Positions 43,798 to 51,809 of a stretch of DNA of 64,000 bases are shown here, piece after piece. The notes beneath the pieces were generated by a model, which did no database searches, was not told the DNA's origin, and worked only from the letters and a program-made list of their open reading frames with translations. Location: contig JBHLOY010000006.1 in the NCBI GenBank assembly GCA_048939995.1, positions 64,001 through 128,000 on the forward strand. The letters are read 5' to 3'. This DNA comes from Promethearchaeota archaeon. Its GTDB lineage: Archaea; Asgardarchaeota; Lokiarchaeia; Sigyniarchaeales; SOKP01. Every line of letters starts with the position of its first letter. The first letter of the stretch is position 1. Made by a program: the position numbers and the translations under genes.

Positions 43798-45240
43798 TTA
43801 ATTTTGAGAATTTAAATCTTTTTTAGATTTTAATTTATAACTTCTAAGTTCCCTTAAAATGACATAATCACCTTTTTTCACAATAATTTGACTATTTTCA
43901 AGTCCCACAATTACTGCTCCTTTAGTTCCAAATGGACTAATTATTTTAGTGAAAGGCTTCTCTAATCTACGACCGACGATCTTTTTGGCACCAGTTAAAC
44001 TTTGGGCTAAGCCAGTACAAATTATACCTTGAGAGTGCGATGGATTTTGTATAATTCCCTTTTTTACTTTATATCTATAGATTATAGGTGATTCCTTGAA
44101 TGTTTTAATCAATTTAGCTGAGCCTAGTACCCTTAAAGTAGTTGGAGGTAGATCTAAGCGGCTTAATAATATTGTAGCTTTTTCCTTCCTAAATAGAATG
44201 TTCTCATTGAAACATAGAAAAGCTTTGAAAGTTATAAAATCATTAGTTGCATTCATTTGAATCTTTTTTCCATTAGATTCAATAAAAGGATAAATATAAC
44301 CTGTTGATGTGAACATTCCTATAGTGATATGTACTTGTGTGCCAAAATGAGTTTCTGCTTTAAATATTTTATTTTTTTTCACCTCAACTTCAATTATATC
44401 AGAATATTCAAACGCATCCTTATTGTCAGTTGCATAACAACCTCTAAAGACATTTTTAGCATCTATGCCTTTAATATTAATACCTACTCTATCACCAGCT
44501 TTCGCATTGTTAACTGTTTGATGAAATATTTGAATTGATTTTACTTTACCAGAGAACCCCACAGGCATTATGTATATTGTTTGATTTAAACCTATTTTGC
44601 CTTGTAAAATCGTGCCAGTTATTATTGTTCCTCTTCCTTTTATAGAAAAATGATGATCAATCGGAATTATTATGTCTCCTTCAAATTCCCTTTGTATCTT
44701 TAAACCTTTTACTTTATCTAAAATCCCTTCTTTTAATTCCCGAAATCCTATTACCTTTTTCGCAGATACAGCGAAGATAGGCACTTTGGATCCAAAACTG
44801 GTTGATTGAAAAAAGGCTCTGGTTTTCTTAATTTCGTGATTTATATCACCATTAAATATATCTGTTTTATTTAATACGACTATAACGTCCTTAATATTTA
44901 ATGATTCTATCATAATAATATGTTCACCGGTTTGAATTTGTGGACCTTTATTGATATCAATTACAATTATTGCACAATCAATTATTTCTACTGAAGAAGC
45001 ACTTATTCTGATTAAGTCTGCATGACCAGGACCATCAACTAAGGTAATAATATACTTATCTAACACAAAACTTGTAAATCCTAAATCAATAGTTATACCT
45101 CTTTCCTTACTTTGTGGATGCGCATCAATACCTGCAGTTGAGATAATTTCACTAAGAACTGCAGCTAAAGCTGTCTTACCACTATCTATATGCCCGTATA
45201 ACCCAATATGAATGGGAATTAAGTTCTTAAAATCAATCAA
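43798..45240 (-). CDS. selB: Selenocysteine-specific elongation factor SelB/eEFSec
   Basis: GHIDSGKT, PQSKERGITIDLGFTSF, DGPGHADLI, NKTD, DHHFSIKGRGT and C-terminal FGTKG; near tRNA-Sec and SepSecS. Confidence 0.9.
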   Translation of the reverse strand: MIDFKNLIPIHIGLYGHIDSGKTALAAVLSEIISTAGIDAHPQSKERGITIDLGFTSFVLDKYIITLVDGPGHADLIRISASSVEIIDCAIIVIDINKGPQIQTGEHIIMIESLNIKDVIVVLNKTDIFNGDINHEIKKTRAFFQSTSFGSKVPIFAVSAKKVIGFRELKEGILDKVKGLKIQREFEGDIIIPIDHHFSIKGRGTIITGTILQGKIGLNQTIYIMPVGFSGKVKSIQIFHQTVNNAKAGDRVGINIKGIDAKNVFRGCYATDNKDAFEYSDIIEVEVKKNKIFKAETHFGTQVHITIGMFTSTGYIYPFIESNGKKIQMNATNDFITFKAFLCFNENILFRKEKATILLSRLDLPPTTLRVLGSAKLIKTFKESPIIYRYKVKKGIIQNPSHSQGIICTGLAQSLTGAKKIVGRRLEKPFTKIISPFGTKGAVIVGLENSQIIVKKGDYVILRELRSYKLKSKKDLNSQN

Positions 45241-49291: not shown

Positions 49292-49443
49292 TCAATTTTG
49301 GCTGAAATATAAATTTTTATAATTATAACTCAAAGAAGTAAACTTAAAAATTTAATCATTGAATTGATATGATATATATGTGAAATTGATTTTAAAAGAA
49401 TAGATTTTCTGTATTAAACAATAAACCATAAACCATAAATTTC

Positions 49444-49452
49444 TTTTAAAAC
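49444..49452 (+). promoter_or_regulatory. Putative TATA box for tRNA-Sec
   Basis: TTTTAAAA lies about 24-31 nt upstream of the tRNA-Sec 5' end. The AT-rich background lowers specificity. Confidence 0.4.
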
Positions 49453-49474
49453 CATCTACTTAATTATTTAAAGT

Positions 49475-49631
49475 GGCCCTAGACGGTCGGAATTGTTTTG
49501 AGATCATATCGATCTCCAACGATAAGTGGTCTCTGACACTGGGCTTCAAACCCAGTTATCCTGCGAAGGGATAGGAGTTCGATAACGGTTGGAAATTTAC
49601 TAATCTTCGAATATCTCCTCGAGGGCCGCCA
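49475..49631 (+). tRNA. selC: tRNA-Sec(TCA) with two introns (49492-49525 in D-stem, 49584-49613 in T-loop)
   Basis: 9-bp acceptor GGCCCTAGA/TCGAGGGCC followed by GCCA; 6-bp anticodon stem ACTGGG-CTTCAAA-CCCAGT; long variable arm; 4-bp T stem GGAG/CTCC. After splicing, a 7-bp D-stem with TGGT loop forms. Confidence 0.92.
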
Positions 49632-49664
49632 TTATATCATATTTATAAATATATTGTGTTTTCC

Positions 49665-51032
49665 ATGGTTGATTTTAACAATATTATTGATTTATTCGAA
49701 GACTCAAATATTCCTAAAAACATGTTGAATAGGGGGCAACTTGTTTTAAACGAGTTTTTGAATCCAATAAAAATCCTATTTGAACAAAGATCCATTCCTA
49801 AAGAACCTTGGACCGAAGAACAAATAGAATTCTTTCTTCAAACTCTTTCAAATATGGATACAGATAAAGATAAGAATGCAGCTAGAGTTGGTGAAAGAGA
49901 GGCAAGAATAGCTTCAAAACTTCATTTAAAAACATCAGCAGGATTTTGCCATGGTGTGGGGAGAAGTGGCTTTTTAACAGCTGCTCAACCAAAAGCACCT
50001 GGAGGCTCAATCATGTATGAGCTTTCCAACTATTTGGCTCGGAATATCTTGAAAAAATCTGGATTATCAAATGTTTCAGATGCAATTGTAGTTCCAATGT
50101 GTACCGGAATGTCATTAGCTTTAACTTTAGGGGCTTTAAGGCCAGATGGGGGTGAAGAAGATTCGGATCTCAAAAGAACTGTATTAGTTCCTCAAGTTGA
50201 TCATAAATCGCTATTAAAATCGATTGACTTAATGGGTCTTAAGGCAAAAATTATTACAGGTAAAATTTTTGGAGACGCTGTAAGAATTCCTGTTGAAGAT
50301 ATAAAATCTAATTCGGATGAAGACTGTTTTGCTGTTATTTCAATAACCAGTTTTTTTCCACCTCGCGAACCAGATAACATAAAGGAAATTAGTAAATTTG
50401 CTAAGGAAAATGATCTTGTACATATTATCATTAATGCATATGGTGTTCAAAGCCCTGAATGGATGAAACTAATCCGATCAGCAATTGATGCTGGTAGAGT
50501 CGATGCAATAATTCAATCGACAGATAAAAATTTCCTGACTCCTGTTGGTGGGGCTCTGATTGCATCACCAATTAAGGATATCATTACTAAAATTAGTCAA
50601 TCTTATGCTGGACGTGCCTCCGCTACTCCGATAGTAAATTTCTTAATTTCAATGCTTTCATTAGGAATTAGTGGTTACCAGAAATTAATTGAAGAACAGC
50701 AACAAAATCGAAAAACTCTTGAAATAAAACTTAAAGAAGTTGCAGAAAAATTTGATGAAAGGATTCTTGATATTTATAATCCAGTAGCTGTTGCATTATC
50801 TTTAAGAAATTTAAAAAAAGATCAGTTATACGCTCTCGGAGGAGCTTTATATAATCTAAGAGTTACAGGCCCTAGAGTATATAACCCTGAAGAAAGTACC
50901 TTTGGAACTTGCTGTTCAAACTATACAACCCCTTATATTGTAATGAATGCTGCAATTGGGACAACTTCAAGCGATATCACTCTCGCTGTTGAAAGGTTTG
51001 AAAAAGCTTATGATCAAATTATTCAGAAGTAA
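49665..51032 (+). CDS. spcS: O-phosphoseryl-tRNA(Sec) selenium transferase SepSecS
   Basis: VGEREARI, HGVGRSG...QPKAPG, PMCTGMS, NAYGVQ, QSTDKNF..PVGG and YAGRAS motifs. ATG 49665, or GTG 49656. Confidence 0.95.
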   Translation: MVDFNNIIDLFEDSNIPKNMLNRGQLVLNEFLNPIKILFEQRSIPKEPWTEEQIEFFLQTLSNMDTDKDKNAARVGEREARIASKLHLKTSAGFCHGVGRSGFLTAAQPKAPGGSIMYELSNYLARNILKKSGLSNVSDAIVVPMCTGMSLALTLGALRPDGGEEDSDLKRTVLVPQVDHKSLLKSIDLMGLKAKIITGKIFGDAVRIPVEDIKSNSDEDCFAVISITSFFPPREPDNIKEISKFAKENDLVHIIINAYGVQSPEWMKLIRSAIDAGRVDAIIQSTDKNFLTPVGGALIASPIKDIITKISQSYAGRASATPIVNFLISMLSLGISGYQKLIEEQQQNRKTLEIKLKEVAEKFDERILDIYNPVAVALSLRNLKKDQLYALGGALYNLRVTGPRVYNPEESTFGTCCSNYTTPYIVMNAAIGTTSSDITLAVERFEKAYDQIIQK

Positions 51033-51128: not shown

Positions 51129-51809
51129 ATGGAGAATCGACTTTTAAACCAATTTAATAATGTAATTTCTTCTCAATGGCTATCCAAAAATATTCAAATA
51201 CCGTATGAACCATTAAAATCAAAAGAATTATTCGAATTAGCATATCATTGTTGCAATTCAATAACAATGAGAAATATTTTTATTAAATTAGCTCCCAGTG
51301 AGGATAAAGGAGGATTTCAAGCAATTTTTTATTCTAGTAGTAAAAAATTCATAAATATCGTAGCATTGGATAATGAAATAAAATTAACAAAATTCTTTCC
51401 CGAGGGTTCTACTGGAGATAAGATTATAACAGAAATTCAGCCTCTTTTAAATAAAAGAAAAGACCAATATATAAAAAAGGATAAAGATATTCAAACTCAA
51501 ATACTTAAAATGATCCTAGTGGAACGCAAATTAGATGAATGTGCAAATTTAGTAATGTTAAAAGAGATAAATAGAAAAGTTTATTTCTCTATTGGGGATG
51601 CTAGAGAGAGTGCTGCTGTAATACCAATATTTATGGAAGCTGATGGAGCAAGTCTAGTACAACTAGCGCTAAACAAATGGATGACTATAGTCCAAAATCT
51701 GGACCAAGAGAAATTTTTTCCTGATAATCTTGTTGCAGGATTACTTAAAAATCTTATGCAGATAAAAAAATGGATATTAAATTTAATCTCAACAAATTTA
51801 GATAAATAG
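51129..51809 (+). CDS. Hypothetical protein
   Basis: 226-aa ORF downstream of SepSecS; no recognised motif. Confidence 0.6.
   Translation: MENRLLNQFNNVISSQWLSKNIQIPYEPLKSKELFELAYHCCNSITMRNIFIKLAPSEDKGGFQAIFYSSSKKFINIVALDNEIKLTKFFPEGSTGDKIITEIQPLLNKRKDQYIKKDKDIQTQILKMILVERKLDECANLVMLKEINRKVYFSIGDARESAAVIPIFMEADGASLVQLALNKWMTIVQNLDQEKFFPDNLVAGLLKNLMQIKKWILNLISTNLDK

Follow-up and report, generated by a model that had tools for sequence, protein, structure and literature searches.

A doubly interrupted tRNA-Sec gene upstream of SepSecS

The window analysed here is a stretch of 64,000 nucleotides on a contig (JBHLOY010000006.1) of the source genome, designated G000. We confirmed that positions 49475-49631 hold a real tRNA-Sec gene, the only one of this Lokiarchaeia (Asgard) archaeon, split by two archaeal-type introns (Table 1). 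The gene ends 24 bases before the reading frame of SepSecS; EFsec lies some 4 kb upstream and is encoded on the opposite strand. Directly after SepSecS comes Sel_Asgard, a gene present in 77 of 85 loci.

Table 1. Features of the tRNA-Sec locus (positions in the window)
Feature	Position	Strand	Remarks
EFsec/SelB	43798..45240	-	PF21440 aSelB_III; TIGR00475 237 bits, just under the cut-off of 242
Promoter/leader	49427..49474	+	BRE/TATA-like AT-rich motif at about 49430-49451, recurring upstream of orthologues; putative function
tRNA-Sec exon 1, acceptor 5' strand and D-stem positions 10-15	49475..49491	+	GTCG at 49486-49489 is the 5' strand of the BHB central helix
tRNA-Sec intron 1, 34 nt, position 15/16, D-stem 5' strand, hairpin	49492..49525	+	CGAT at 49520-49523 closes the BHB; absent in intronless orthologues
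tRNA-Sec exon 2, D-loop TGGT, D-stem 3' strand, anticodon stem, variable arm, T-stem 5' strand	49526..49583	+	Probable allele crossover zone
tRNA-Sec intron 2, 30 nt, position 59/60, T-loop	49584..49613	+	Central helix TTCG/CGAA; loop as in the 31-nt Loki intron (PMC4989117)
tRNA-Sec exon 3, T-stem 3' strand, acceptor 3' strand, G73, encoded CCA	49614..49631	+	Sequence and fold
SepSecS, single copy	49656..51032	+	Probable start ATG 49665; PF05889, TIGR03531
Sel_Asgard, putative selenocysteine-system protein	51129..51809	+	NF045535, 225 bits (cut-off 132)

Excision of both introns leaves a 93-nt product with a 9/4 fold, in which eight of the nine acceptor pairs form (the other is A.G) and the T-stem has 4 bp. 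A 7-bp D-stem (GTCGGAG/CTCTGAC) closes a 4-nt D-loop, and the anticodon TCA (UCA), at 49546-49548, is carried by a 6-bp stem. A long variable arm follows, then the T-loop TTCGATT, G73 and an encoded GCCA end; G73 is present in 71/71 full-length tRNA-Sec genes. A sequence-only reading of this DNA had claimed these coordinates and motifs and the two-intron 9/4 tRNA-Sec identity, and both our re-reading of the sequence and the fold agree with it.

Counting from G10, the D intron sits at 15/16, which is a D-loop position in ordinary tRNAs. Here the site falls within the D-stem only because tRNA-Sec extends this stem to seven pairs. The sequence-only reading described it as inside the D-stem 5' strand, a location for which it knew of no precedent.

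Intron boundaries and splice motifs

How well are the boundaries placed? The spliced gene shows four differences from its nearest intronless orthologue at shift 0, and sliding either intron never reduces this distance. For the D intron a shift of -1 ties with shift 0 (there is an A at both ends), and the BHB fixes the register. Since the intronless orthologues fix them, the boundaries are supported independently of the BHB motif. One intronless locus, L016, has exactly the sequence obtained by splicing the two-intron genes L030, L037 and L072. Two checks of the kind proposed with the sequence-only reading gave concordant answers: in an alignment of tRNA-Sec loci beside SepSecS, intronless orthologues match the spliced product, and an HMM built from 26 intronless genes gives 97.9 bits to the spliced sequence, about 82.5 to singly spliced forms and 66.3 to the unspliced gene. 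The T-intron length carries no independent weight, having been set in our parsing of orthologues so as to yield 93 nt; independent support comes from the gap-free match to intronless genes.

In both introns the BHB central helix has 4/4 pairs and is flanked by 3-nt bulges. When the introns are shuffled, such a helix appears at the exact boundary in about 2% of cases, for each intron. All four central pairs are present in 33/33 D-intron orthologues, and among 39 T-intron orthologues 18 have four pairs and 21 have three. The D-intron helix covaries: exon GTTG pairs with intron CAAT in L101, L140 and L164 (versus GTCG/CGAT), and L189 and L190 have exon GTTG with a wobble kept in the intron. A different D-arm intron, one base upstream (14/15) and with its own 4-bp helix starting from G9, occurs in L079, L084 and L143. 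Both motifs had been described as clean BHBs; this fits the central helices and bulges but not the flanking helices, which are short. The D-BHB has an inner helix of 3 bp and an outer helix of only 2 bp (G.U, C-G), while the T-BHB uses the T-stem as outer helix and has an inner helix of 1 bp, then a mismatch. From the boundaries, the conserved BHB motifs and the encoded enzymes, we infer that both introns are spliced.

Selenocysteine and splicing machinery

The gene content indicates that the organism uses selenocysteine: it encodes SelD with an in-frame TGA, a PSTK-like protein (a full-length match of 161 bits, E 3.8e-47, under the curated cut-off), SepSecS and EFsec. With this machinery present and a sole tRNA-Sec gene, splicing must presumably occur if selenoproteins are made. 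There are two EndA paralogues, at C3:124k and C28:98k; the alpha subunit is nearest to the Aeropyrum EndA and retains the Tyr/His/Lys triad as well as a CSL-like loop with its Lys. The CSL loop of EndA has been tied to the cleavage of non-canonical introns (PMC6379350). An RtcB gene is also encoded; by sequence, the EndA appears to be of the broad-specificity type, fit for non-canonical sites.

Non-canonical introns are common in the other tRNA genes of G000: they lie at 59/60 in Lys and two Arg genes, at 21/22 in Val and at 28/29 in Thr and Pro. The sites across these other genes comprise 15/16, 21/22, 28/29, 37/38 and 59/60, and most resolved tRNA genes need EndA, in a census that is partial (low-scoring candidates were discarded). 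The 15/16 site is occupied in a tRNA-Gly(TCC) gene (C11 near 476600, minus strand) by a 28-nt insert with 3/4 central pairs. A tRNA-Ile(GAT) gene (C5 near 44900, minus strand) appears to be interrupted by 29 nt close to where the acceptor-stem 5' strand ends.

The possibility that the tRNA-Sec introns were copied from a different tRNA gene within the genome was considered and rejected: neither intron has a match of more than 14 contiguous bases elsewhere in the genome, and the other resolved tRNA introns look unrelated. The T introns of tRNA-Sec span 29-31 nt. Those of other G000 tRNAs (C19:7093, C37, C38:78845, C19:68112 and C7:5034) are of unrelated sequence and 29-32 nt long. These shared lengths of about 29-32 nt suggest that T-loop introns are under a length constraint.

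Detection by annotation tools

ARAGORN misses the unspliced gene, and Rfam model RF01852 gives it a mis-aligned match of 26.7 bits, against a gathering cut-off of 47. Intronless orthologues, one of them five differences from the spliced product, reach 57.7-63.9 bits; intron-bearing test loci obtain 40.3 bits at most, or no score. Exon patterns find tRNA-Sec in 38 of the 42 genomes of the genus, and only 16 of these 38, all intronless copies, pass the Rfam cut-off. With 22/38 genes of the genus below it, surveys of the Sec trait based on tRNA-Sec would undercount Lokiarchaeia. Across the order, a 24-base exon-2 pattern matches in 140 of 154 genomes. G000 itself yielded no second tRNA-Sec; a second match in genome G007 (46 bits) was discarded as a tRNA-Sec, being without a UCA loop. 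A phylum-wide Rfam search did not isolate interrupted tRNA-Sec genes of other classes.

Could such genes explain 'missing' tRNA-Sec in Asgard genomes, as had been suggested? The ARAGORN and Rfam misses are real, but we found no paper posing the problem, and Secmarker has reported three-intron genes. Huang 2024 assigned the Sec trait to 85.9% of Lokiarchaeia/Helarchaeales, in a study whose supplements carry no tRNA-Sec counts, and Sun 2021 noted unusual insertions in some Lokiarchaeia tRNA-Sec.

Distribution and turnover among Lokiarchaeia

From about 130 fetched loci we parsed 72 distinct Lokiarchaeia tRNA-Sec genes: 27 are intronless, 27 have both D and T introns, 11 combine an anticodon (37/38) intron with a T intron, six have the D intron only and one the T intron only. 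Among congeners with tRNA-Sec beside SepSecS, 16/37 are intronless, and so is the majority of the genes retrieved from outgroup genera and families. A tree of 85 loci (a tblastn-based concatenation of neighbouring genes) requires no fewer than 13 changes of D-intron state and 11 of T-intron state. The near sisters L067 (T only) and L070 (D+T), separated by a host distance of 0.06, differ in their D state. Introns of this kind are ordinary in the group, though close relatives lack them. Chimerism at exon 2 was examined as a cause of this patchiness and rejected, the trees of upstream and downstream genes giving equal change counts (11, 10, 2). Locus L088, at a contig end, was not relied upon.

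Typing of the D-intron sequence gives 8 changes for 6 types, a modest incongruence that is weak taken alone. All 34 positions of the intron are unchanged in L110 and L090, whose SepSecS fourfold sites show 43-45% identity. By this comparison the D intron is far more conserved than neutral sites, which allows some function of its own.

Several side observations were made on these loci. A clade of congeners (L020, L024, L025 and related loci) has the canonical 37/38 intron together with the T-loop intron, and 37/38 introns in tRNA-Sec also occur in L133, L159 and L162. The closest SepSecS loci come mostly from Promethearchaeota (Lokiarchaeia) MAGs. Several records titled Hodarchaeota, Thorarchaeota or Odinarchaeota nest among Lokiarchaeia, and L087 (LJUH01000039.1), labelled Chlamydiae bacterium SM23_39, bears a Lokiarchaeia tRNA-Sec/SepSecS locus and is probably mis-binned or mis-titled.

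Splicing as housekeeping or as a regulatory gate

The reading that we prefer, with a probability of about 0.88, is that the organism's only tRNA-Sec gene carries two ordinary BHB introns, at 15/16 and 59/60, whose splicing is an obligatory housekeeping step and not a selenium switch, and which are dispensable passengers gained and lost among relatives. Transcription would start from the upstream TATA-like element, probably together with SepSecS. An (alpha-beta)2 EndA would cleave behind the second base of each bulge, and RtcB would join the exons. SerRS would then charge the 93-nt tRNA, PSTK would phosphorylate it and SepSecS would convert it, before its delivery by EFsec.

The predicted D-intron BHB occupies D-stem positions 10-13 and would compete with the D-stem. 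In its lowest-energy fold, a nearest-neighbour prediction without protein, the precursor keeps 6/7 D-stem pairs and loops the intron out. By the same kind of prediction the BHB fold is the less stable by 5.3 kcal/mol (the median for 33 genes being 3.8), so that splicing efficiency could be limiting. The BHB probably arises during transcription or is trapped by EndA; co-transcriptional capture would be plausible, since the BHB is complete before the D-stem 3' strand is transcribed. An intron that borrows the D-stem 5' strand as a BHB helix makes a neat substrate for studying the Asgard EndA and which of folding and splicing comes first.

The sequence-only reading went further and proposed that the D-arm recognised by PSTK exists only after splicing, so that splicing could gate Sec synthesis. 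The first part is too strong, since the predicted precursor fold keeps most of the D-stem. For the second, the D-arm intron would hold tRNA-Sec inactive and the cell would tune Sec synthesis via splicing, perhaps through a switch between BHB and D-stem. The position of the introns is suggestive here: the compact D-loop and U59 of tRNA-Sec are contact sites of the PSTK C-terminal domain (PMC3035459), both introns adjoin these features, two competing precursor folds are predicted and the D-intron sequence is strongly conserved. Unspliced tRNA-Sec is probably a poor PSTK substrate, yet any tRNA intron blocks function until excised, and PSTK without its C-terminal domain stays active. The same mature tRNA is made from intronless genes in the 16 congeners and in most outgroup genes, intron presence changes repeatedly on the tree, even between sisters as near as L067 and L070, and EndA, needed by most resolved tRNAs, is shared by many of them and would confer no Sec specificity. 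No selenium-sensing element is apparent. We therefore regard a regulatory gate as very improbable.

Proposed exchange of alleles between lineages

If splicing is housekeeping and the introns are passengers, how do they come and go? The 48-nt leader of the source gene is 67-88% identical, without gaps, to that of exactly nine loci, all of the D+T class, and at most 50% identical to that of every other locus. The hosts of these nine loci lie at protein distances of 0.53-1.04 from the source genome, and the leader is unlike those of the closest relatives. Leaders are unrelated between near sisters of different D state; those of L067 and L070 are 35% alike despite the short host distance. Within the gene, the T-stem variant GGAG/CTCC accompanies the T intron in 19/20 loci, and D and T presence change jointly in independent pairs (8 to 0, p about 0.008).

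The adjacent SepSecS gene departs from its surroundings as well. It is 74-75% identical to its counterparts in the host sisters L110 and L114 and 84-86% identical to L064 and L065 of another lineage, whereas other flanking genes are 72-92% identical to L110 and L114. Grouping SepSecS with the host sisters is rejected (AU p = 0.0016, on a quick tree), and the foreign tract extends over about 49650-50850. From these comparisons SepSecS is best described as a xenolog, replaced in place from another Lokiarchaeia genus, with flanking genes that follow the host sisters.

The simplest reading of the leader and SepSecS data is a homologous replacement of tRNA-Sec alleles between Lokiarchaeia lineages. 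We lean towards the broader proposal that homologous exchange between genera, of entire alleles or of halves, is the main way in which Lokiarchaeia gain and lose tRNA-Sec introns; crossovers would fall in the conserved exons, and the two-intron allele would move with its promoter. T-only and D-only alleles look like exon-2 recombinants. The data behind this proposal come from MAGs only, with a host tree drawn from neighbouring genes alone and no single read across the locus. The pattern would also agree with strong purifying selection acting on an ancestral allele of promoter and introns, provided that intronless alleles replaced it again and again; this reading likewise needs exchange. One further locus, L188, has a short degenerate copy of exon 1 about 25 bases before an intact tRNA-Sec, possibly a scar of recombination or integration.

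Integrity of the assembled gene

An assembly chimera was considered as a rival explanation. The conserved 58-nt exon 2 might have fused different Lokiarchaeia, so that the introns, or the foreign SepSecS, do not belong to one genome. Exon 2 is indeed common to many co-occurring strains (in run X3 its summed depth is about 2,800, that of the flanks about 40), and no contig from three studies spans the whole gene. However, the contigs on its two sides, which show 0-1 differences, agree in depth in all three studies (39.4/36.9, 10.2/7.8 and 7.6/7.3, upstream/downstream), and 27 distinct D+T genes exist in other assemblies. L110 and L114 are the nearest sisters for genes on either side of the foreign tract, so that a chimeric assembly would call for another, unrelated junction around 50850. 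We give this explanation hardly any credence.

The A.G mismatch in the acceptor stem (49481/49621), pointed out in the sequence-only reading, proved to be a true strain variant: A is found in contigs of three studies, and T in a near-identical strain. It could lower activity in the source strain. That it marks a tRNA-Sec losing its function is just as implausible as a chimera: A.G is unique among 71 full genes at this pair, but the pair is already non-Watson-Crick elsewhere (U.G in 48/71, G.G in one), G2-C71, C3-G70 and G73 are intact, the A allele persists in three studies, and SelD requires UGA decoding with no other tRNA-Sec copy at hand.

Comparison with known systems

A Lokiarchaeota tRNA-Sec with a 31-nt T-loop intron was described by Mariotti et al. 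2016 (PMC4989117) and Santesmasses et al. 2017 (PMC5330540). The source gene has in common with it the 9/4 fold, the 7-bp D-stem, the 4-nt D-loop, UCA, G73 and the T-loop intron, which lies in the same loop and is of the published Loki type, as the sequence-only reading had noted. EFsec is also found a few kb upstream on the opposite strand in both loci. The source gene differs in its additional 15/16 D-stem intron, in a T intron of 30 nt and in having SepSecS directly downstream. We found no paper naming an intron at 15/16 in tRNA-Sec. In Atabeyarchaeia, a different class, tRNA-Sec has three introns, against two here (Valentin-Alvarado et al. 2024, PMC11291895, Supplementary Data 4); Secmarker scores them at 36-47 bits, and the table does not give their positions.

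Hidden D-arm introns of Asgard tRNAs were the subject of Goswami et al. (bioRxiv 10.64898/2026.10.13.758758). Like ours, their introns sit in the D-arm, escape annotators, are enriched in BHB motifs, have come and gone repeatedly at shared positions and are accompanied by an (alpha-beta)2 EndA, but the focus is on other Asgard families, and tRNA-Sec positions are not discussed. The route by which introns arrive is left open there, horizontal transfer or recombination never being mentioned, whereas our data at the source locus suggest exchange. Thermoproteales tRNAs likewise have several BHB introns per gene outside 37/38 and a CSL-bearing EndA; in that order, however, introns are copied among tRNA genes within one genome, while those of the source gene have no copy elsewhere in theirs.

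The Loki T-loop intron, a three-intron tRNA-Sec and Asgard D-arm introns are thus already published, and the locus is not a new kind of system. What is new is the association of a promoter shared with nine distant lineages and an adjacent SepSecS xenolog, pointing to exchange of alleles between lineages. This pattern, rather than the unlikely regulatory idea, is the part most worth pursuing. If true, it would add a route of tRNA-intron turnover left out of the 2026 Asgard census, and it makes the locus a testable case of intron turnover through recombination between lineages.
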